From Thermoanaerobaculia bacterium (GTDB lineage: Bacteria > Acidobacteriota > Thermoanaerobaculia > Multivoradales > UBA5704), in contig DASPXX010000144.1 in NCBI GenBank assembly GCA_035637095.1, positions 7,578 through 71,577 of the forward strand: a stretch of 64,000 bases of DNA, read 5' to 3'. Below the pieces are notes generated by a model, which did no database searches, was not told the origin of the DNA, and worked only from the letters and a program-made list of their open reading frames with translations. The translations under genes were made by a program, and so were the position numbers. Below are positions 12,303 through 41,768 of this stretch, piece after piece. Numbering within the stretch: position 1 is the first letter of the stretch; every line of letters begins with the position of its first letter.

Positions 12303-13805
12303 ATGGTCGAAGTCCTGCTGGCCCACTCCTTCTTCCTCGAGAACGATCCCAAGCAGATCGAGAAGATGCGGCCCTATCCGCCGCTGGGGACGCTCTTCGC
12401 CGCCTCCTGGCTGCGCGAGGCCGGATACGACGTCGCCCTGTTCGACGCCATGCTCTCCCGGGGCGAGGAGGAGCTCGCCGCGGCGCTGGAGCGCCACCGC
12501 CCGCGCTTCGTCGTCTTCTACGAGGACAGCTTCAACTTCCTCAACAAGATGTGCCTGGAGCACGCGCGCGCGGCCGCCTGCCGCATGACCCGCACGGCCC
12601 GCCGGACCGGCGCCACGGTCCTCGCTGCCGGGGCCGACGTCTCCGATCACCCTCTTCCTTATTTTGATGCGGGGATTCAGTACGGCCTGACCGGCGAGGC
12701 GGATCACACGCTGCGCGAGCTGCTGGACACGCTGACCGGCCGCCGCGACCAGCCGGTCGAGACGGTCGCCGGGCTGGCCCTCCCCGATCCGGCCGCGCCG
12801 GGCGGCGTACGCCGGACCGCCGAGCGTGCCTTCGAACGCCACCCCGACGTTTTCCCGCTCCCCGCCTGGGACTTGGTGGACGCCGAGCGCTACCGCCAGG
12901 CCTGGACCGAGGCCCACGGCTATTTCAGCGTCAACCTGGTGACCACCCGCGGCTGCCCGTTCCACTGCAACTGGTGCGCGAAGCCGATCTGGGGCCGGCG
13001 CTACGCCATGCGCTCGGCCGCCCGGGTGGCCGAGGAGATGGCCCTGGTCAAGCGCCTCCTCGAGCCCGACCACGTCTGGTTCTCCGACGACATCTTCGGC
13101 CTCCAGCCGAAGTGGGTGGCCGACTTCGCCCGCGAGGTGGAGGAGCGCCAGGCGCGCATCCCCTTCACCATCCAGACCCGGGCCGACCTGATGACCGGGG
13201 TGGCGGTGGCTGGCCTCGCCCGCGCCGGCTGCGTCGAGGTCTGGCTCGGCGCCGAGAGCGGCAGCCAGAAGGTCCTCGACGCGATGGACAAGGGGATCCG
13301 GGTCGAGGAGACGGTCGAGGCGACCTTCCGCCTGCGCGAGGCGGGCATCCGCGCCTGCTGGTTCCTCCAGTTCGGCTACCCCGGCGAGACCTGGGAGGAC
13401 ATCCAGGAGACCGTCCGCCTGGTGCGCGAGACCCTGCCGGACGACGTGGGGGTGAGCGTCTCCTATCCCCTCCCCGGCACCCGCTTCCACGCCATGGTGG
13501 CCGCCGAGATCGGAGACAAGACCCACTGGGCGGACAGCAACGACCTCGCCATGATGTTCCAGGGCACCTACCAGACCCCCTTCTACCGCAAGCTCCGTCA
13601 GGTGGTGCATCGCGACCTCGACCTGCGCCAAAGGCTGCGCCGGGGAGAGACCGGCAACGGCTTCGAAGGAGAGCTGAACGGCCTCGCCGAGGACTGGCTG
13701 GAGCTCGGCCGCCTGGAAGCCACCTGCCGGAGCGCCGCGCCGACCCACGTGACCCGGACGTACGGGCCGCTGGAGGCGCCGGACCTGAGCAAGCCGTGGA
13801 ATTGA
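12303..13805 (+). CDS. B12-binding domain radical SAM protein (1 of 3)
   Basis: N-terminal MRPYPPLG cobalamin-binding region; RGCPFHCNWC; GAESGSQ. Confidence 0.92.
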   Translation: MVEVLLAHSFFLENDPKQIEKMRPYPPLGTLFAASWLREAGYDVALFDAMLSRGEEELAAALERHRPRFVVFYEDSFNFLNKMCLEHARAAACRMTRTARRTGATVLAAGADVSDHPLPYFDAGIQYGLTGEADHTLRELLDTLTGRRDQPVETVAGLALPDPAAPGGVRRTAERAFERHPDVFPLPAWDLVDAERYRQAWTEAHGYFSVNLVTTRGCPFHCNWCAKPIWGRRYAMRSAARVAEEMALVKRLLEPDHVWFSDDIFGLQPKWVADFAREVEERQARIPFTIQTRADLMTGVAVAGLARAGCVEVWLGAESGSQKVLDAMDKGIRVEETVEATFRLREAGIRACWFLQFGYPGETWEDIQETVRLVRETLPDDVGVSVSYPLPGTRFHAMVAAEIGDKTHWADSNDLAMMFQGTYQTPFYRKLRQVVHRDLDLRQRLRRGETGNGFEGELNGLAEDWLELGRLEATCRSAAPTHVTRTYGPLEAPDLSKPWN

Positions 13806-13820
13806 GCCCCTACCCGCCCT

Positions 13821-14138
13821 GCGTAGCCGTTGTCCCCGCCGTGTAAGCGTTATCCCCGGCGTGTAACGCTTATCCCGGCGGTGTAAGCCTTATCCCTCGC
13901 GTGTAAGCGTTATCCCGGGCGTGTAAGCGCTATTTCCCTCGGTATAAGCCTTATACGCGCCGTGTAACGCTTATCCCGGGCGTGTAAGCGTTATTCCGGT
14001 CGGGATAAGCGTTATACGCGCCGTGTAGCCGCTATCCGGCGGGGATAAGCGTTATACGGCCGGGATAAGCGTTACACGGAGCGTGTAGCCACTATCCCGG
14101 CGGTGTAGCGGCAAACGCGGGCGGTTAGCGGCTAACGC
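13821..14138. repeat. Tandem array of ~16 units of 20-21 bp, each with a 6-3-6 quasi-palindromic core (G[TG][GA]TAA-NNN-TTA[TC][AC]C)
   Basis: Units start at 13841, 13861, 13881, 13901, 13921, 13942, 13962, 13982, 14003, 14023, 14043, 14063, 14083, 14103. Confidence 0.9.
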
Positions 14139-14163: not shown

Positions 14164-17142
14164 ATGCCCGATCCCCAACTCCTCGCCGAGGCTCTGGTCC
14201 TCCTCCTCGCCAAGGCTCTCCCGACCCTTGTTGCCGCGGGAGAGAAAGCGGCCGGCAAGGCCGTCGAAGAGGTGGGCAAACAGGGTGGTGCGGCTGTCAC
14301 CGGCAAGGTCAAGGAGATCTGGGGACGCCTTCGCGGGAAGGTCGAGGAGAAGGCTGCCGCGCAGGACGCCGTCGTCGACCTCGCGGAGGACCCGGCCGAC
14401 GCGGATCGCCAGGCGACTCTCCGGCGCCAGCTCGTCAGGATCCTCACCGCCGATCCCGACCTCGCCGCGCTCCTGGAGCCTCTGGTCGCAGCCGCCCGCA
14501 TCGAGGTCAATACGACCCAGGTGCGGGCCGGAGATCAGGCGGTCGCTGTGGGGCGCGATGTGTACGGCGACATCAACATTCACAACGCCACTTCCACCGA
14601 CCGTACCGACCCCACCGCCCTCCGCAGGGCCTACCTGACGCGCCTCATGGAGCAGGTCGGCGTGCTCTCCCTGGCCGGCATCGATCCAGCGGCGGCGGGT
14701 GGCGAGGCGGAGGCCCGTTTGAGCCTCGATGCCGTGTACACGGCGCTACGGACCCGGACTCCAGAAGTCGACCCCCACGGCGGCAAGCTCCAGCGAACAG
14801 AGCGGCGCGCCTTGTCAGCCCTGGAGCAGCTCAACCACCATTCGCGTCTCATACTGCTCGGAGATCCGGGCAGCGGCAAGAGCACGTTCGTCCATTTCGT
14901 CGCCCTCTGCCACGCGGGCGAAGCGCTCGACCACCCCCAGATCAACCTCGAGCTCTTGCGGGCGCCCCTCCCTCAGGGGGAACCGCAACGTCCTGGCGAG
15001 AAGCCGGAGCCTCAACCCTGGAGCCACGGACCTCTGTTGCCGGTGCGTGTGGTGTTACGCGATTTTGCTGCGCGGGGCTTGCCTCCCTTGGATCATTTGG
15101 TGACGGCCCGCCACCTGGCCAACTTCCTGGAGAAGGATCTCGAGGAGGCGTGTCTGGGAGACTATGCCCCCATTTTGTTCAAAGAGCTTCAGGAGAAGGG
15201 CGGGCTCCTCCTCTTCGACGGCCTGGATGAGGTTCCGGAAGCGGAGCACTGCCGCGACCGGCTCCGGCAGGTGGTGGAAGAATTCGTCCGCACCTTCTGG
15301 AAGTGCCGCGTGCTCCTGACGAGCCGGACCTACGCCTATCGGAACCAGGGTTGGCAACTCGACCGTGTCATCTTCAAGGAGGCGGAGCTGGCGCCGTTCG
15401 ACGAGGCGCAGATCCGGACCTTCGTGGAGCGCTGGTACAGCCAAGTTGCGGCCACGGGCCGGCTCGGCCGCGAGGAAGCCCAGGGCCGGGCTCAGCTCCT
15501 GCTGAACGCCGTGCTCGGCAGCGACCGCCTCCAGGGATTGGCAGAGAGGCCGCTGCTGCTGACTCTGATGGCGAGCCTTCATGCCTGGCGCGGAGGGAGC
15601 CTTCCGGAGAAGCGCGAGCAGCTCTATGCGGACGCCGTGGAGCTTCTCCTGAATCTGTGGGAGAGCCAGCGGGTGATCCGTGATCCCGATGGGACGACGC
15701 GACTGATGCAGCCGAGCCTGGCCCAGTATCTGGACATCGGGAAGGATCAGGTGCGCCAGGTGCTGGAAGAGCTGGCTTTCGAGGTGCATTCCCGCGGGGA
15801 CCTGGCGGGCACGGCCGACGTCGCCGAGGGGGAGCTGGTCGCGCGCCTGATGCGGCTGGGGCGGAAGCCGGGCACCAATCCGGCCGAGCTCGTGGAGTAT
15901 CTCAGCCAGCGGGCGGGCCTTCTCGTGCCGCGAGGTGTCGAGGTCTACACCTTTCCTCACCGGACGTTTCAGGAGTATCTGGCGGCGTGCCATCTGACGG
16001 CGAAAGGATTCCCTCGGGAGCTTGCGGATCTCGGTCGCAAGGACCCCGGGCGCTGGCGCGAAGTCGTGCTTCTCGCCGGGGCCAAGGCGGCGCGAGGTGC
16101 CGCGTTCGCGACCTGGTCTCTGGTGGAACGGCTATGCCCTCACGAGCCGGCCGAGAGCGTTGGGGTGGAAGATGCGTGGGGAGCCCACCTGGCGGGCCAG
16201 GTGATCGCCGAGGTGGCGGATCTGGAGAACCTGGACGAGACGGATCGGAAAAAGCTGGAGCGTCTCCAACGCTGGCATGTCCACCTGTTGGCGACCGGTC
16301 TCCTCCCGGCACGGGAACGGGCCCTGGCAGGAAAGACGCTGGCGCGGCTCGGCGATCCGCGCCCGGAGGTGATGACTCTGGACGGCATGGAGTTTTGCCG
16401 TGTGCCGGCCGGGCGGTTCCGCATGGGGAGCGAGGCGGATGACGAGATGGCCTCCGAAAGCGAGCGGCCGGCTCACGACCTGGATCTCCCCTACGAGTAC
16501 CGGATGAGCCGATATCCGGTGACGGTGGCACAGCTCCAGGAGTACGTTGAGGAGAGCGGGAATCAACCTGGAGATCCCGACAGCCTCCGAGGGCCGGCGA
16601 ACGCACCGGTGGTCCGGGTGAGTTGGGACGAGGCTCTCGCGTTCTGCCGGTGGTTGACGGTTCGCTGGCGAGCCTGCGGAAAGATCGAGCCGGATTGGGA
16701 AGTGAGCCTGCCCTCGGAAGCGGAATGGGAGAAGGCGGCGCGCGGGGAGGACGGCCGGCGCTATCCGTGGGGAAAGGACGCCGATCCGGAGAAGGCCAAC
16801 TATCATGAAACGGGGATCTCGGAACCGAGCACGGTCGGTTGCTTTCCCTTGGGGGCGAGTCCTTGTGGCTGCGAGGAGATGAGCGGCAACGTGTGGGAGT
16901 GGACGCGGAGTCTTTGGGGAAAAGATGTGAGTGAGGCTTCCTACGTGTATCCCTACAAAGCAAAAGACGGCCGGGAAGATCTCGAAGCATCATCTGAAGC
17001 CCTCCGGGTGTTGCGTGGGGGCGCCTTCAACAGTGGCTACTGGTTCGTGCGCTGCGCCTTTCGCTACTGGTACTACCCGTGGTACCGCAGCTGGAATACG
17101 GGATTCCGGTTGGTGCTGCTTCCATTCTCCTCTGATCTCTGA
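14164..17142 (+). CDS. STAND/NACHT NTPase with N-terminal Bell-like helical domain and C-terminal FGE-sulfatase (SUMF1) domain
   Basis: Walker A LLGDPGSGKST, Walker B LLFDGLDEV, LLTSR, FPHRTFQEYLAA; FGE motifs RYPVTVAQ, LPSEAEWEKAARG, MSGNVWEW, RVLRGG, GFR. Confidence 0.9.
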   Translation: MPDPQLLAEALVLLLAKALPTLVAAGEKAAGKAVEEVGKQGGAAVTGKVKEIWGRLRGKVEEKAAAQDAVVDLAEDPADADRQATLRRQLVRILTADPDLAALLEPLVAAARIEVNTTQVRAGDQAVAVGRDVYGDINIHNATSTDRTDPTALRRAYLTRLMEQVGVLSLAGIDPAAAGGEAEARLSLDAVYTALRTRTPEVDPHGGKLQRTERRALSALEQLNHHSRLILLGDPGSGKSTFVHFVALCHAGEALDHPQINLELLRAPLPQGEPQRPGEKPEPQPWSHGPLLPVRVVLRDFAARGLPPLDHLVTARHLANFLEKDLEEACLGDYAPILFKELQEKGGLLLFDGLDEVPEAEHCRDRLRQVVEEFVRTFWKCRVLLTSRTYAYRNQGWQLDRVIFKEAELAPFDEAQIRTFVERWYSQVAATGRLGREEAQGRAQLLLNAVLGSDRLQGLAERPLLLTLMASLHAWRGGSLPEKREQLYADAVELLLNLWESQRVIRDPDGTTRLMQPSLAQYLDIGKDQVRQVLEELAFEVHSRGDLAGTADVAEGELVARLMRLGRKPGTNPAELVEYLSQRAGLLVPRGVEVYTFPHRTFQEYLAACHLTAKGFPRELADLGRKDPGRWREVVLLAGAKAARGAAFATWSLVERLCPHEPAESVGVEDAWGAHLAGQVIAEVADLENLDETDRKKLERLQRWHVHLLATGLLPARERALAGKTLARLGDPRPEVMTLDGMEFCRVPAGRFRMGSEADDEMASESERPAHDLDLPYEYRMSRYPVTVAQLQEYVEESGNQPGDPDSLRGPANAPVVRVSWDEALAFCRWLTVRWRACGKIEPDWEVSLPSEAEWEKAARGEDGRRYPWGKDADPEKANYHETGISEPSTVGCFPLGASPCGCEEMSGNVWEWTRSLWGKDVSEASYVYPYKAKDGREDLEASSEALRVLRGGAFNSGYWFVRCAFRYWYYPWYRSWNTGFRLVLLPFSSDL

Positions 17143-36723: not shown

Positions 36724-37071
36724 CTATCCCTGATCAATCCACTCGCCGACCATGGGCTCGCAGAACCTGATCAACTCGGGCACATGGCGCTCGCAGATGT
36801 TCCAGACGACTGCGAAGTCGATCTCATCGTATTCGTGGACCACGAAGTTGCGCAGCGCGATCACCTGCTTCCAGGGGATCTCCGGGTGTTCTGCGCGGAA
36901 TTCCTCAGAGAGCCGCCGGCTGGCCTCGCCGATGATCACCAGTTGGTGGAGTATGGCTGCGCGGAGGAGCTTGCTGCCCAAGAAATCCTCCCGGGTTGCA
37001 CCCTGCCTGAACTCCATGAGGTCGCGAGCCGCGATCAGGATGTCGACGAGGATGCCGATGTCACGATCCAT
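36724..37071 (-). CDS. hepT: HepT-like (DUF86/HEPN) ribonuclease toxin
   Basis: IIGEASRRLS...PEIPWKQVIALRNFVVHEYDEID (RX4HXY). Confidence 0.9.
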   Translation of the reverse strand: MDRDIGILVDILIAARDLMEFRQGATREDFLGSKLLRAAILHQLVIIGEASRRLSEEFRAEHPEIPWKQVIALRNFVVHEYDEIDFAVVWNICERHVPELIRFCEPMVGEWIDQG

Positions 37072-37390
37072 GAACCGTGGTGGCCTCGCGGAGGATGTGC
37101 TGCCGTCGGTACAGGTTGCGACTGTGCTCTACAACCCGCCGATCGAGGACGTCCACCCTGCGGCCGACGAGGCGGGCCAACTCGTCTTTGATCTGGAACC
37201 AGTCCATGCCCGTTGGACCCCCTTCGGGCTCGAAGCTGACCAGGAAGTCAATGTCACTGGAGGTATCGAAGTCTTCGCGCAGGACAGAGCCAAAAACTTC
37301 GAGCCTGGCAATGTGCCACCTTTGGCAGAAGTCTTCCAACACCTCTGGCCCGACCTCCAGCCGCTCGCTGATCTGCGTCTGGGTGGTCAT
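37061..37390 (-). CDS. mntA: MntA-like minimal nucleotidyltransferase antitoxin
   Basis: VFGSVLREDF...SDIDFLV (GSX10DXD), RRVDVL; overlaps the hepT start. Confidence 0.9.
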   Translation of the reverse strand: MTTQTQISERLEVGPEVLEDFCQRWHIARLEVFGSVLREDFDTSSDIDFLVSFEPEGGPTGMDWFQIKDELARLVGRRVDVLDRRVVEHSRNLYRRQHILREATTVHGS

Positions 37391-37473
37391 ATCTTGGAGA
37401 TTATAGCCGCTTGAGGAGTCTCAGCGTGGTCTTCAGCCAGGGTTTACCCTGAGCACCGGGGTCCCCACACCCC

Positions 37474-37539
37474 CGAGGCTGCGAGGGTCTGACGCTCGAT
37501 CTCGACGCGCTGTGGGCGGCGATCGACAGCCTGGAGTGA
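37474..37539 (+). pseudogene. Isolated 3' remnant resembling a Uma2-family endonuclease C-terminus
   Basis: Reads RGCEGLTLDLDALWAAIDSLE* with an in-frame stop at 37450 and no start codon. Confidence 0.35.
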
Positions 37540-37773
37540 GGCCCTCCCCCCATGCCCCGCCGACAGGTGCCACCGAAAAGAGTAGAGGTCGCTAAAAAGT
37601 TCCCTGTTCGGGGCTGCGGAGCCCATTGCCAGCCACCGTGGTCGCGGGAGTGTGGGCCGGCGAGACGCCAGCGGTCCCAGGGGGTGATGCTCGGCCCTCG
37701 TGCCGGACCATCGGTTCGCGGCGCGGATGAAATAGTGCTTGGCGGCAAGCTCTTCCCTGCGCCAGCGAGGCGC

Positions 37774-38270
37774 TCCTGAGGCTCGGTAGATCCTACCCGA
37801 CTGTTGGGAGGCTCCTCCCGAGGTCCGGGAGCCTCTTCTCGATCATTGAGACGGTCCTCCCGAGGTCCGGGACGCTCATCCCGACCTACGGGAGGCTCCG
37901 TCCGAACATTGGGACGCTCATCCCGACCATTGGGAGGCTCATCCCCACCATTGGCACGCTCGTCCCAATCATTGGGACGCTTGTCCCGAGGTCCGGGAGG
38001 CTCGTCCCAATGGTTGGGAGGCGCTTCCCAATGGTTGGGAGACGCTTCCCAATGGTTGGGAGAGCCTTCCCAATGGTCGGGACGCTCGTCCCAATGGTCG
38101 GGACGCTCGTCCCAATGTGCGGGTCGCTCGTCCCAATGTGAGGGAGACGCCTCCCAATGTGCGGGAGACTCGCTCCGAGGTCCGGGATGCTCGTCTGAAA
38201 GCACGGATGGACCTTCCGGGGAGTCGGGAGGCTCGTCCCGATGATCGGCGAAGGCTTCCCAAGAGACGCG
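37774..38270. repeat. Strictly phased 21-bp tandem array, ~23 units, consensus TCCC-N7-GGGA-N6
   Basis: Units at 37795, 37816, 37837 ... 38257 with no indels; central units TCCCAA-TGG-TTGGGA. Confidence 0.92.
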
Positions 38271-38338
38271 CCAGGGGCCGCAACGCGCGGGGAGAGCGTG
38301 CCGCGGCCCGGGAGAGGCTTCCGGATGCTCGTTGCGCC

Positions 38339-38818
38339 TCACTCTTTGGACGGGACTTCGGCCGGATCGTTCTTCGCGTAGACCGTAGCCCTCTGGCCGG
38401 CTCCGCGCTCCGCGGTGCGGATGTAGCCTTCGTGAACCAACTCCCGGAGAATCCGGAAGAGAATGCCGCGATCCGGCTCGTAGCCGATCACCTTGCACAC
38501 GTCGTTGCGCGTGAACGTGTCGGGCAGGCGGTCGAGCGACGCGTAGATTTCGTCGCGCGCCTCATAGGTTCTCTGGCCGTGAGGCTGCGGCTGGCTTCTG
38601 GCGAGTGGCTGCTCCTGCGAAGCAGGAGCGGGTGCGCCCGGTGCCGGGAGAGAGGAGAAGGCCATCTCCACCCTGGCGCCAGACTCCTCGGCCTGGAGCA
38701 TCCACACCAGATCCAGGGCCCGGACCTGGGCCAGGTAGGCAGACTCCAACAGTTGAATGCCGGCGCGGAGCTGTTCCTCCAGCCGCTGCTTGCGCTGTTC
38801 GTATTGAGTTTTTGTCAT
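38339..38818 (-). CDS. Hypothetical protein: N-terminal coiled coil, Pro/Gln linker, C-terminal winged HTH
   Basis: MTKTQYEQRKQRLEEQLRAGIQLLE helix; FTRNDVCKVIGYEPDRGILFRILRELVHEGYIRTAERG wHTH-like pattern. Confidence 0.7.
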   Translation of the reverse strand: MTKTQYEQRKQRLEEQLRAGIQLLESAYLAQVRALDLVWMLQAEESGARVEMAFSSLPAPGAPAPASQEQPLARSQPQPHGQRTYEARDEIYASLDRLPDTFTRNDVCKVIGYEPDRGILFRILRELVHEGYIRTAERGAGQRATVYAKNDPAEVPSKE

Positions 38819-38878: not shown

Positions 38879-40093
38879 TTACTGGCGCCGCGGCTCCCAG
38901 CGGTGCAGGTGGCGGACCAGGAAGTCGAGCGGGAAGACGTGGGCCGTCCCGTCGTCGCGCCGGAAGACGACCTGGGACCAGCCGCGGACGTTGACCGGCG
39001 TGTACCAGCACCCGCCGAGGTGCAGCTTGTGGCCGGACACGGCGCGGATGAGGACCTGCTCGTAGCGCGAGCGGCTGAGCAGGCGCTCCGGGAAGAGATC
39101 GTCCCAGGTGCACAGCCGCCCGACGTCCTCGTAGGCCTCCGGCCGGTCGGCGAGGTCGAGCAGCGACGGCGCACGGCCGCGCATCACGCCGCCGATGAGA
39201 CGCAGGCTGAACGGACCGGTGAGACGGCGGATCGAAGGCCAGAAGCGGTGGGTGATGGTCCCCGCGAGCTCGCGCATGCTCACCTCGCGTCCGTCGCGGA
39301 GCGGCCACGACGGGTGGTCGACGTCGCAGGTGAACGGGTTCACCGGGAAGCAGTCGAACCGCGCGACCCAACCCTGGCGGCTGGCGTGCTTGACCGGGGC
39401 GAAGCCGGCGACGACCGGGATCTCCATCCGCTCGAGCATGCCCAGGTCATAGGACGGCCAGCGCATCACCGCGCGCACGATGCCGAGGATGAGCGATCCG
39501 GTGGCGATCGAGAGCGCCGGCTCCGGCGTGAAGTCGACGGTCACTTCCAGCCGGTTGCCGCGCGGCCGGACGCCGACGCCGCTCGACGAGCGGCGGTTGG
39601 TGGCCAGGAGCATCACCGGGAAGGGCAGGATGTAGGTGAGCAGCAGCGCGAGCTTGCGCACCGTGCGCTCCCGCCCCTGCTCGGCGAGCGGCAGCTCGAA
39701 GGAGACGTTGTAGTGCATGCTGTAGCCGACCAGCCGCGCCGGCTCACCGCCGCTCTGCTCCCAGGCGTCGAGCTCTCCGCGGACGAAGCGGATCGACTCC
39801 CACAGCTGGCGGCCGGCGCGCGCCGCCGCGCCGCGCTCGATCTCGATCGCCGGCGTCGCCACCTCGATGACGCCGGTGTCGAAGTAGACGGCGGCGCCGG
39901 TCGGCAGGTGGTAGGACGTGCCCTCGCGGTGCATCAGCGCGCCGCGGACGAAGGCGGTGGGAGTGCCGAAAATGTCCTCCGGCTGGCGGCGCCGGCCGGC
40001 GATCCACAGCTCGAGCTCGGCCTCCATGCCGGTGGCGGCGAGCGCCAATGGGACGTCGGGCGCCTCGGCGAGCGCCTTGACCGGACCCTTCAT
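38879..40093 (-). CDS. PafA/Dop (Pup ligase/deamidase)-like carboxylate-amine ligase fold protein
   Basis: GMEAELE, LPTGAAVYFDTGVIEVATP, GYSMHYN and RLEV parallel PafA GIETEFG, LRNGARLYLDVG..EYAT, YGCHENY and RLH; ATGA overlap with the upstream gene. Confidence 0.7.
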   Translation of the reverse strand: MKGPVKALAEAPDVPLALAATGMEAELELWIAGRRRQPEDIFGTPTAFVRGALMHREGTSYHLPTGAAVYFDTGVIEVATPAIEIERGAAARAGRQLWESIRFVRGELDAWEQSGGEPARLVGYSMHYNVSFELPLAEQGRERTVRKLALLLTYILPFPVMLLATNRRSSSGVGVRPRGNRLEVTVDFTPEPALSIATGSLILGIVRAVMRWPSYDLGMLERMEIPVVAGFAPVKHASRQGWVARFDCFPVNPFTCDVDHPSWPLRDGREVSMRELAGTITHRFWPSIRRLTGPFSLRLIGGVMRGRAPSLLDLADRPEAYEDVGRLCTWDDLFPERLLSRSRYEQVLIRAVSGHKLHLGGCWYTPVNVRGWSQVVFRRDDGTAHVFPLDFLVRHLHRWEPRRQ

Positions 40094-40722
40094 GGCGGCT
40101 CGCCTTGCGCAGCGCTGTCGCCGTCCTCCGACCCAGCGCCATGTGGGACCAGGGTGACGAAGCCGAGGTCGAGGTGGATCTGGTCGTCGACGAAGCCGCG
40201 GCCGGTGCCGTAGGGCCGCGCCCGGACGCCGCTCATCGTCTCGCCGGCGATGCGGTTGTAGCGCTCGATCGTCTCCGGCGTGTCGAGCCAGTCGTCGCCG
40301 ATGCGGTAGATGTTGACCGCCGTGCCCCAAGAGTGCGGTGTCGCCACCGTCGACAGCCGGTGCGCCGGCGAGCGGTAGCCGCCGTTGGCGGCGACGTGCA
40401 CGTAGGTGCCGACCGCGGCGCGGAAAGGCTCGAGCGCCGCCGCCATCAGCATCACGGCGCAGGGCGCGTAGCGTGGGAAGGTCCGCAGCAGCTCCGCCTC
40501 GCGGACGTCGACGCCGATCAGCTCCCAGAGCATGAAGTGCGGCGACAGCGGTGTTTCGAGCGCAGTTTTCCAGGAGTCGATCTCATAGAAGAAGCGCGGC
40601 AGCCGTCGCCCGCGGCCTTCGGCGTCGCGCAGGATGCCGCCCGGGCGCAGCGCCTCGCGGTACGCCCGGGCGAGCTGCAGGCCGTCGACGACCGGCAGCG
40701 GCGGTGCTCCCGGCTCAGACAC
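40090..40722 (-). CDS. Peptidase M15A-like (D-Ala-D-Ala carboxypeptidase fold) protein
   Basis: LSPHF..WEL, GGYRS, PHSWGTAVNI and IHLDLG motifs; no signal peptide. Confidence 0.65.
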   Translation of the reverse strand: MSEPGAPPLPVVDGLQLARAYREALRPGGILRDAEGRGRRLPRFFYEIDSWKTALETPLSPHFMLWELIGVDVREAELLRTFPRYAPCAVMLMAAALEPFRAAVGTYVHVAANGGYRSPAHRLSTVATPHSWGTAVNIYRIGDDWLDTPETIERYNRIAGETMSGVRARPYGTGRGFVDDQIHLDLGFVTLVPHGAGSEDGDSAAQGEPP

Positions 40723-41560
40723 GCTCTTCCTCCCAGGCCTGCAGATGCTCGAAGATGCTCTGCGAGATGCCGGCGATCACCTCGCGCCGCCGACCGGCGT
40801 CGGGCGGCCATTGCGTCAGGACCGCCAGCACGTAGGGCTCGCGGTCGGGCAGGAAGACGATCCCGGCGTCGTGGGCGGCGGTCGAGATCTCGCCGGTCTT
40901 GTGCGCCACCCGCGCGCCCTCCGGCAGGCCCGCCGGAATGCCCTTCCTGAACTGCTGCTGGTGCAGGATGTCGAGCATCCGCCGGCTGACGGCCGCCGAC
41001 CAGGCCCGCTCCTCGACGATCAGACGCAGCGCCTGGAGCAGCCCGTTCGCCGTCACCTGGTTGTTGATGCCGGCCTGCCACGCCAGCTCGTCCTCGACCC
41101 CCCGCCGCAGCTCGACGCCATCGAGATGCAGCGGCGCCAGGATGCGCTGCATCTCCTCGAGGCCGATGACGTCGATCAGCAGATTGGTCGCCAGGTTGCT
41201 GCTGGTGGCGATCATGTGGTGCGCCAGCTCCTTGACCTTCATCGTGCGGCCGATCGCCCGCGGCACGTCGGGGTTGGCGTCGCGGCTCGCGTCGATGCGG
41301 AAGCGCGAGCCGTCGGCCAGGCTGAAGAAGCGGTTGCGCACGTGGACCGGGGACTCCTCGCTCAGGAGACCTTCCTGGATTGCTCCGTAGACGCCGAGCA
41401 GCACCGGCACCTTGATGGTGCTGGCGGCGTGGAACCAGAGATCGCCGTGCCAGCTCCAGCCCTGGTGCGTCTCATAGTCGTGGAAGGCGACCCCGACCTG
41501 CTCGGCCCCCGCGTCATGGGCGAGCTTCTCGATCTGCATTCGCAGGCTGCTGACCGTCAT
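40715..41560 (-). CDS. Class A beta-lactamase-like serine hydrolase
   Basis: AASTIK (SxxK), SSN (SxN), HKTG; no signal peptide. Confidence 0.88.
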   Translation of the reverse strand: MTVSSLRMQIEKLAHDAGAEQVGVAFHDYETHQGWSWHGDLWFHAASTIKVPVLLGVYGAIQEGLLSEESPVHVRNRFFSLADGSRFRIDASRDANPDVPRAIGRTMKVKELAHHMIATSSNLATNLLIDVIGLEEMQRILAPLHLDGVELRRGVEDELAWQAGINNQVTANGLLQALRLIVEERAWSAAVSRRMLDILHQQQFRKGIPAGLPEGARVAHKTGEISTAAHDAGIVFLPDREPYVLAVLTQWPPDAGRRREVIAGISQSIFEHLQAWEEERV

Positions 41561-41649
41561 GGGCTCTCCGGCGCCTGGTTCAGTGTCACGGGGGCGTTCC
41601 CTCGCCCGCTCCGCTCCACCCTGCACGTTTGGGGCCGGCGGGACGTGCT

Positions 41650-41678
41650 TTGACAAACCGGAGGCGACCGCTTAGCAT
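41650..41678 (+). promoter_or_regulatory. Sigma70-type promoter of the tRNA-His gene
   Basis: TTGACA (41650-55), 17-bp spacer, TAGCAT (41673-78), 13 bp upstream of the tRNA. Confidence 0.8.
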
Positions 41679-41691
41679 TTTCCGCCTCTGG

Positions 41692-41768
41692 GCCGGTGTA
41701 GCTCAGTTGGTTAGAGCGCCTGACTGTGGATCAGGAGGTCTCCGGTTCAACTCCGGACACCGGTACCA
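41692..41768 (+). tRNA. tRNA-His (GTG), CCA encoded, G1.U72 and A73
   Basis: GCCGGTG-TA-GCTC-AGTTGGTTA-GAGC-G-CCTGA-CTGTGGA-TCAGG-AGGTC-TCCGG-TTCAACT-CCGGA-CACCGGT-A-CCA; anticodon at 41726-41728. Confidence 0.95.

Follow-up and report, generated by a model that had tools for sequence, protein, structure and literature searches.

A winged-helix protein gene paired with phased 21-bp repeat arrays in Acidobacteriota

What ties a gene for a small protein of DNA-binding type to a long array of short repeats just past its stop codon? The question is raised by a stretch of 64,000 nucleotides from a Thermoanaerobaculia bacterium (assembly GCA_035637095.1, contig DASPXX010000144.1, positions 7,578 to 71,577), which is called the window throughout. 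Its minus strand carries, at 38339..38818, a gene for a 159-aa protein with a winged helix-turn-helix (wHTH) domain. Past the end of the gene, at 37784..38262, lies the core array: about 23 indel-free 21-bp units of the form GGGA-N6-TCCC-N7, in non-coding DNA and with no strand assigned. A preliminary description, drawn from the sequence letters alone, had taken the two for parts of an undescribed, possibly partition-like system. Our analysis shows that each member of the protein family is encoded directly beside an array, and that this pairing is obligatory and self-contained.

Linkage of the gene to its array

At least 174 relatives of the 159-aa protein were found among 90%-identity clusters, and 482 cluster representatives were retrieved at E ≤ 1e-3 among 1.84 billion proteins. 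The loci examined comprised 49 genome loci, three metagenome loci and two paralogues in the genome of the window (C208 and C329). All 49 genome loci came from Acidobacteriota, mostly from Thermoanaerobaculia or Holophagales. By homology searching, the proteins are shown to form an unannotated family restricted to Thermoanaerobaculia and Holophagales. The gene is present in 0-9 copies per genome; some loci lie on contigs recorded as whole chromosomes (OY969112, 7.05 Mb; OY970330, 8.78 Mb) and others on long chromosomal contigs.

Linkage was measured as the maximum lag-21 identity in 210-bp windows, with 0.5 taken as the threshold. Downstream of the gene, the median identity was 0.58 (minimum 0.40) and the threshold was reached in 39 of 49 loci. 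The corresponding median was 0.33 in the 600 bp upstream, with none of 48 loci at 0.5 or above, and 0.40 in the far flanks, with one of 49. The ten loci below the threshold downstream still exceeded other lags (z 3.9-7.5), and in the three of them that were read by eye (L012, L043 and L045) the period is apparent. Wherever enough downstream sequence was available, an array with a 21/42-bp period begins at most ~190 bp from the stop codon, and in most homologous loci the periodicity begins at the stop codon itself. The preliminary description had suggested looking for homologues next to 20-21-bp arrays, and the outcome was strongly positive (49/49 loci with enough downstream DNA). The arrays of the family are non-coding, 100-700 bp long, and contain 15-33 units.

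The base rate of such neighbours is low: the 6.65-Mb genome holds ~113 arrays, and roughly 2% of genes in general have one. No protein family recurs in more than four of the 49 loci within 3 kb on either side of the gene-array pair, and the neighbours that do recur reflect orthologous synteny or are sigma-54 activators.

The module occurs in two gene-array orders, since the distant subfamily L061 and L062 carries the array immediately upstream of the wHTH gene and the other loci carry it downstream, including the distant member L063. In the upstream subfamily (L061:1935-2460, and L062), units of CGGACGGT give way to ACCGTCCGC ahead of the wHTH gene; a 97-aa gene and a 656-aa gene come after. 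The array there had been annotated by the gene caller as a 191-aa protein.

The array of the window was established by several measures. Tandem Repeats Finder called a period of 21 (also 42 and 63) over 37791-38195, and a repeat search listed 24 copies in 37784-38262, spaced exactly 21 bp start to start across 21 successive steps. All 13 matches to TCCC-N7-GGGA in the window fall within the array and in a single phase; 3.06 would be expected for the whole window, and 13 was reached in none of 100 shuffles. The 21-bp array of the preliminary description is therefore real. The gap of ~70 bp that it reported between gene and array was also confirmed, this being the distance from the end of the last well-formed unit (38262-38266) to the stop codon (38339-38341). 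These ~70-75 bp consist of degenerate units and are not a neutral spacer. In a collinear alignment of seven homologous arrays, this gene-proximal tail between the stop codon and the regular array (38263..38338) is conserved in all seven, including four orphans, copies that lack the wHTH gene upstream. A tail unit that in relatives has the family-typical form GAGACATTCGC is changed to GGCGAAGGCTTC (plus strand) in the window. Homology between array copies stops at about the position of the wHTH stop codon.

The motif changes orientation along the array. Units of the gene-proximal arm (37994..38166) read TCCCAATG on the plus strand and CATTGGGA on the gene strand; in the gene-distal arm (37889..37993) the orientation is inverted, with CATTGGGA on the plus strand and TCCCAATG on the gene strand. 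The inversion is also seen as the inverted repeat I1, with 119-nt arms that are 71% complementary. Half-sites alternate at 10 and 11 bp. The array has a GC content of 64%, and no AT-rich stretch was seen beside it in the sequence.

The ATG of the protein, at 38818, coincides with the start of its homologues (MT[RK]xQYE). An AlphaFold2 model built on a 46-sequence alignment had a mean predicted local distance difference test (pLDDT) score of 79.5. It contains a single N-terminal helix at residues 3-52 (pLDDT 95-98), a disordered Pro/Ala-rich linker at residues 53-79 and a winged helix at residues 80-149. The last consists of helices 80-97, 104-111 and 117-130, a strand at 101-103, and strands 133-137 and 146-149, which form a two-strand wing. 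This canonical winged helix confirms the fold that had been assigned from the sequence letters. The long amphipathic N-terminal helix of the model may form the coiled coil named in the preliminary description.

Searches of Pfam, NCBIfam, PHROGs and PADLOC assigned the protein to no family; the best Pfam match, AbiEi_4 (E = 0.07), was below its cut-off. A profile search of the PDB gave E values of 0.03 or worse, the best being to Fur/Zur and replication terminator protein. Foldseek against the PDB returned only generic winged helices, every one at E > 1e-3, with TubR and AspA among these weak matches. Membership among MarR-, PadR- or Fur-type regulators was rejected, as neither a family profile nor a solved member matched significantly.

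The layout of helix, linker and winged helix is constant across the family. The predicted recognition helix (residues 114-124, EPDRGxL[YF]RxL) is nearly invariant in the close family. The N-terminal helix is also highly conserved, and its invariant polar residues (K10, R12, Q16, E25, Q31, R33 and W39) suggest that it may have a conserved host partner.

Array motifs, conserved core and genome-wide repeats

Array motifs differ by clade and track the protein clades. The window's clade has GGGA-N6-TCCC, L014 and L020 have GGGGGAATGTTCC, and L046 and L056 have AGCTGTGATGCC; in many clades the units are not palindromic. In the earlier proposal of a protein-plus-array system, the pairing is supported by the linkage; the palindromic units are peculiar to the clade of the window and not family-wide.

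Across the family, CATTC/GAATG, ACATT/AATGT and TCATT/AATGA are enriched 9-11 fold in the arrays over the flanks. Their distribution is polar on the gene strand: CATT dominates from ~0 to 250 bp after the stop codon and AATG from ~200 to 500 bp. The window obeys this rule, with its CATTGGGA units proximal and its TCCCAATG units distal. The density of CATT/AATG is 13.3 per kb in 46 linked arrays from other genomes and 22.4 per kb in the window's array type, compared with 3.4 per kb in the other 107 arrays of this genome and 1.7 per kb in the genome as a whole.

Five homologous arrays of ~550-630 bp occur in the genome, with unrelated flanks: that of the window (C144) and four others (C27:8330-9000, C116:23240-23870, C169:32380-32960 and C189:10200-10720). 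Together with the arrays of L008 and L009, these seven copies align collinearly. Mean pairwise identity among them is 87% at the eight core positions (GGGA/TCCC) and 60% at spacers; at positions 5, 10, 19 and 20 it is 35-47%, close to saturation. Indels are confined to isolated 1-bp slips and one deletion of exactly 21 bp. The conserved core amounts to 8-10 nt, namely GGGA and TCCC plus positions 9 and 16. Given the difference between 87% and 60% identity and the restriction of indels to slips and one 21-bp deletion, the alignment is taken to show purifying selection on this 8-10-nt pattern and on its exact two-turn spacing. We infer that conserved residues of the protein would read the shared core and variable residues the flanks, and the near-invariance of the recognition helix fits this division.

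Periodic DNA of this kind is abundant in the genome. We counted 113-114 windows with lag-21 identity of at least 0.55 in its 6.65 Mb, compared with 0-7 at lags of 18, 19, 22, 23 and 24; examples (genome G000) are C17:35271-36142, C26:4968-5764 and C66:21356-22287. The arrays fall into at least 16 sequence families with 2-24 dispersed copies each and non-homologous flanks. Of 101 open reading frame (ORF) ends that adjoin arrays, 72 are 3' ends, mostly of unrelated genes, often of toxin-antitoxin, sigma-factor or Uma2-like type.

A second phased array in the window, at 13828-14138, repeats a unit of 20-21 bp (CGTGTAAGCGTTATCCCGG) ~15 times and shows a higher-order period of 61 bp. It occupies the interval from the 3' end of a 500-aa gene (12303-13805, plus strand) to the start of a 992-aa gene (14164-17142, plus strand), and its motif family differs from that of the array at 37784-38262.

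Another small protein family, which we call RSEKL, was also seen beside 21-bp arrays. Its nine paralogues are helical and basic, share the motif G-x-RSEKL-x-EF-x(4)-[FL]R and have no Pfam match above threshold. Each gene lies beside an array, mostly of different families (C316:12678-13082, C331:23546-23950, C303:28-471, C111:396-839 and five more). An RSEKL-like 88-aa gene (L068:2629-2895) adjoins a CATT-phased array in a genome without the wHTH protein. Arrays without the wHTH gene were also located in sister-genus genomes (G011:C1:2593428-2593578; G028:C53:21969-22098, C56:56848-56998 and C75:72829-72958). They have units such as CATTCGCCCGCAGACCCAGCC and adjoin unrelated genes, among them a 725-aa uvrA-looking ORF, a 628-aa dnaE-looking ORF and toxin genes.

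A putative protein coat and its rivals

In our view, the simplest reading is a dimer, formed through a coiled coil, that would coat one face of the DNA. With moderate confidence, we propose that a phased nucleoprotein filament forms where the protein coats its own array, the binding itself being putative. The recognition helix would read the shared core in successive major grooves, one winged helix to each groove, in keeping with the 10/11-bp alternation of half-sites in the window. With a period of 21 bp, equal to two helical turns, every copy would face the same side of the DNA, and neighbouring subunits would be joined into a filament by the pairing or zipping of their N-terminal helices. 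A gene adjoining its array would favour loading in cis, and the orphan arrays of the same type (C27, C116, C169 and C189) would be bound in trans. Most likely, the complex would act as a local chromatin-like block at gene ends, serving as a roadblock, an insulator or a self-titrating sink.

Several observations weigh against a coat of this kind. Only three of the ~113 arrays in this genome adjoin the wHTH family. Among the five arrays of the window's type, only that of the window itself has the gene, the other four being orphans. Three sister-genus genomes without a detectable homologue (G011, G028 and G034) carry 21-bp arrays, with GGGA-N6-TCCC arrays in G011 and G028 and CATT-phased arrays in all three. 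The prediction that CATT-phased arrays would be confined to genomes with the protein failed on these same genomes. As arrays occur in genomes without a homologue, neither the period nor the core is exclusive to the protein, and the arrays could be bound by other proteins or by a general host factor. The array flanks vary widely against a nearly invariant recognition helix, and the tracking of protein clades by motifs is confounded by shared descent. A rule that pairs each array family with a single protein gene did not reach significance either (10 families among 11 protein-adjacent arrays, 8.3 expected, P = 0.17).

The alternative that survives best, which we nevertheless consider unlikely, builds on these points. 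The arrays would be an autonomous, lineage-wide intergenic repeat, comparable to repetitive extragenic palindromes (REP) and bacterial interspersed mosaic elements (BIME), that serves as structural DNA or as the target of a general host factor, for instance gyrase or a nucleoid protein. Its linkage to the wHTH gene would have a cause other than binding, for example control of the gene's expression by the array. This would account for the ~113 arrays in at least 16 families, most of them beside unrelated genes and at 3' ends, for the recurrence of the period, with similar cores, in genomes without the protein, and for a 21-bp period common to all families whatever their motif. It leaves unexplained why an array lies beside every member of a small protein family, compared with ~2% of genes generally, why the pairing persists in the distant subfamily with the array on the opposite side, and why the linked arrays have in common a core that the remaining arrays of the genome seldom contain.

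The array may instead act as RNA, a quite improbable explanation in which it is co-transcribed with the wHTH gene as a long structured untranslated region. Such a region would keep the message stable, regulate it or give rise to small RNAs, and the protein might bind it. In most loci the array begins right at the stop codon, and no intrinsic terminator separates the two. A weak terminator-like hairpin, GCTTGCCGCCAAGC followed by a T-rich tail, occurs just past the array on the minus strand (37737..37750) and is a possible end of a transcript spanning gene and array; one such site against 1.5 expected in shuffles is not significant by itself. The gene-strand RNA of the array folds far better than shuffled sequence (z = -12), a result for which the palindromic unit alone suffices. 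Hairpins of single units kept by covariation were rejected, as the pairs flanking the GGGA/TCCC cores were not more complementary than in shuffles, and apparent compensatory changes (GGGAGG/CCTCCC versus GGGACG/CGTCCC) failed a shuffle test on 105-136 units. Covariation is thus absent outside the 4-bp cores. Folding of the whole array into one long hairpin or cruciform was likewise rejected: self-complementarity is equal in registers 21 bp apart, so no unique long-range register exists. An RNA function is also at odds with the non-palindromic units of many clades, with orphan copies that have no wHTH gene upstream, some of them between convergent genes, and with the subfamily whose array lies upstream. 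A search of the 64-kb window against Rfam at the gathering threshold matched only a tRNA at 41692-41765, and nothing on the array.

Improbable to a similar degree is a selfish or symbiont-like pair, in which the protein maintains or spreads the array and the orphans are its non-autonomous descendants, as in the pairing of REP-associated tyrosine transposases (RAYT) with REP doublets forming hairpins (REPIN). The 2-24 dispersed copies per family with non-homologous flanks would fit such spreading, as would the orphans that keep the whole tail through the position of the gene's stop codon and the presence of the RSEKL family beside arrays of different families. However, family scans, the AlphaFold2 model and Foldseek gave the protein no catalytic domain, and the aligned ends show neither target-site duplications nor terminal features. 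From its synteny with L009, the locus has not moved recently, and the copies are old, with spacers near saturation.

We consider it very improbable that the 21-bp repeat encodes a heptad-repeat protein. The period is a multiple of three, and long ORFs span the array on both strands and have been annotated by gene callers; they arise because the 21-bp unit has no stop codons in several frames. Two candidates were weighed, a 365-aa ORF (37401-38498, minus strand) and a G-[KRT]-x-[VILF]-P-x-x frame. The frame of the former can begin at the GTG that overlaps the wHTH stop codon, and a GTG, ATG or TTG overlaps the stop codon in 35 of 49 loci. Coding was nevertheless rejected on frames, stops, phase slips and codon-position conservation. 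Over the 49 loci, the median open length of the overlapping frame is 64 codons, which does not improve on the other two forward frames (56 and 52), and the overlapping frame closes early in L008 and L009, the closest relatives, and in C27 and C116. Slips of 1 bp occur in C169, C189 and L009, and the plus-strand G-x-x-[VILF]-P frame of the window contains two stops. Invariant bases such as T11 stand at third codon positions while first and second positions vary; the codons GGG and CCA are fixed in a genome of 68% GC, and the codon-position GC of the 365-aa ORF is not gene-like. Gene callers and ORF lists have made spurious proteins of 93-365 aa out of arrays at the window locus itself (37401-38498, minus strand) and at L010:5305-6081, L008:637-918 and L061:1895-2470.

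Just as hard to sustain is the centromere or origin of an integrated plasmid or phage, in which the protein would be a type II/III partition adaptor or the Rep of an iteron origin. The gene adjoins iterated sites, TubR and AspA are among its weak fold matches, and toxin-antitoxin genes and a tRNA-His gene lie nearby. Across the 49 loci, however, the pair has no conserved neighbour of any kind, be it an NTPase, a replicase or an integrase. The copies number 0-9 per genome, some on contigs recorded as whole chromosomes, the single winged helix of 159 aa is unlike a two-domain Rep, and the GC-rich array adjoins no visible AT-rich stretch.

Known systems, surroundings and wider meaning

The proposed coat has its closest counterparts in plasmid partition. 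In TubR-tubC (type III), ParR-parC (type II) and AspA of pNOB8, a small dimeric DNA-binding protein is encoded beside its own tandem sites and coats them cooperatively into a filament or superhelix. The likeness lies in the gene of a small winged-helix protein (TubR, AspA) beside a tandem array of short sites, which here abuts the gene in all 49 loci with enough sequence; binding in the present case is inferred. The differences are considerable. No motor gene for ParM, ParA or TubZ is linked, and the module is chromosomal and multi-copy, not carried on a plasmid or prophage replicon. The arrays are much longer, with 15-33 units, and lie downstream of the gene instead of over its promoter, and orphans exist. 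Family and PDB profile searches found no sequence relationship. The partition-like role suggested in the preliminary description was not upheld, no NTPase being linked in the 49 loci.

Iteron arrays offer a second comparison. In P1 repA-incA, F repE-incC and R1 repA-CIS-oriR, arrays of 19-22-bp units with a phase of about two turns lie immediately downstream of a winged-helix Rep gene. Iteron Rep proteins act preferentially in cis, are titrated by the array and have two tandem winged-helix domains in ~250-350 aa. At iteron origins, direct repeats of 17-22 bp adjoin DnaA boxes and an AT-rich element where the DNA unwinds. The array phased at about two helical turns downstream of a winged-helix protein gene is shared. 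Here, in contrast, the protein has one winged helix in 159 aa and no matches to Rep families, and there is no replicon context. The motif orientation flips halfway along the array, which is GC-rich with no unwinding element seen.

By analogy, the module would work most like the adaptor-centromere pairs (TubR-tubC, ParR-parC) and the downstream iteron control arrays (P1 incA, F incC). It is a member of neither, because no motor or replicase is linked, the copies are chromosomal and multiple, and the protein has a single winged helix. The module is no canonical partition or replication system and looks like an undescribed chromosomal, partner-less and multi-copy form of a DNA-binding-type protein encoded beside iterated sites. 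A full-text literature search returned no description of such arrays in Acidobacteria.

In its genomic distribution, the module resembles, by analogy, REP/BIME and REPIN-RAYT. REP/BIME clusters and REPIN-RAYT systems of proteobacteria consist of short palindromic units in intergenic DNA, mostly at gene 3' ends, with a repeat-flanked HUH (Y1) transposase gene and orphan copies. Dispersed intergenic families, gene-tied repeats and many orphans, mostly at 3' ends, are found here as well. However, the linked gene encodes a non-catalytic winged helix with no matches to transposase domains, and the arrays are long, tandem and strictly phased at 21 bp, with no hairpin covariation. The architecture of the protein recalls RacA-ram, MatP-matS and H-NS/Lsr2, in which an oligomerising helix, a linker and a small DNA-binding domain serve single dispersed sites or AT-rich tracts. 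The two-part build and the chromosomally scattered sites are alike; a phased array beside the protein's own gene is found only here, the domain order of RacA differs, and no homology was detected.

Genes for a toxin-antitoxin pair, the MntA nucleotidyltransferase (37061-37390) and the HepT HEPN RNase (36724-37071), lie on the minus strand ~390 bp past the array, the same strand as the wHTH gene, and are not conserved beside the module in other loci. Upstream of the wHTH gene, a 483-aa ORF (38879-40330), a 210-aa ORF (40090-40722) and a 313-aa ORF (40715-41656) lie next to the tRNA-His gene (41692-41768). The 483-aa protein has no match in Pfam, NCBIfam, PHROGs or PADLOC, and the 210-aa protein none in Pfam or NCBIfam. 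The former is 89% identical to its counterpart in the metagenome locus L009, where the wHTH protein is only ~72% identical and a Beta-lactamase2-domain gene occupies the place of the 313-aa ORF. The 483-aa gene was rejected as a partner of the module, as it is syntenic only in this close relative.

A broader and more tentative idea, to which we give a limited chance, is that of a satellite chromatin. More than 100 phased 21-bp arrays per Thermoanaerobaculia genome, in many sequence families, would be served by at least two unrelated protein families (wHTH and RSEKL) as orthogonal, sequence-addressed coats encoded beside master arrays; orphans would be bound in trans. Filaments of this kind would serve as marks or insulators at gene ends, or would organise the chromosome by bridging sites far apart. 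If true, this would be a bacterial genome architecture without a described counterpart.

The recognition of this class has a practical side, as gene callers annotate the arrays as proteins (93-258 aa in the loci seen), and knowing them removes spurious genes from metagenome-assembled genomes. Orthogonal parts for addressing DNA may be available in nature in the diverged protein-array pairs. Should the protein bind its array, the pair would be a self-contained two-part module of ~1.1 kb that builds a helically phased filament without a motor, replicase or recombinase. It would then give the first molecular handle on the more than 100 21-bp-phased arrays carried by each genome of these soil Acidobacteria.

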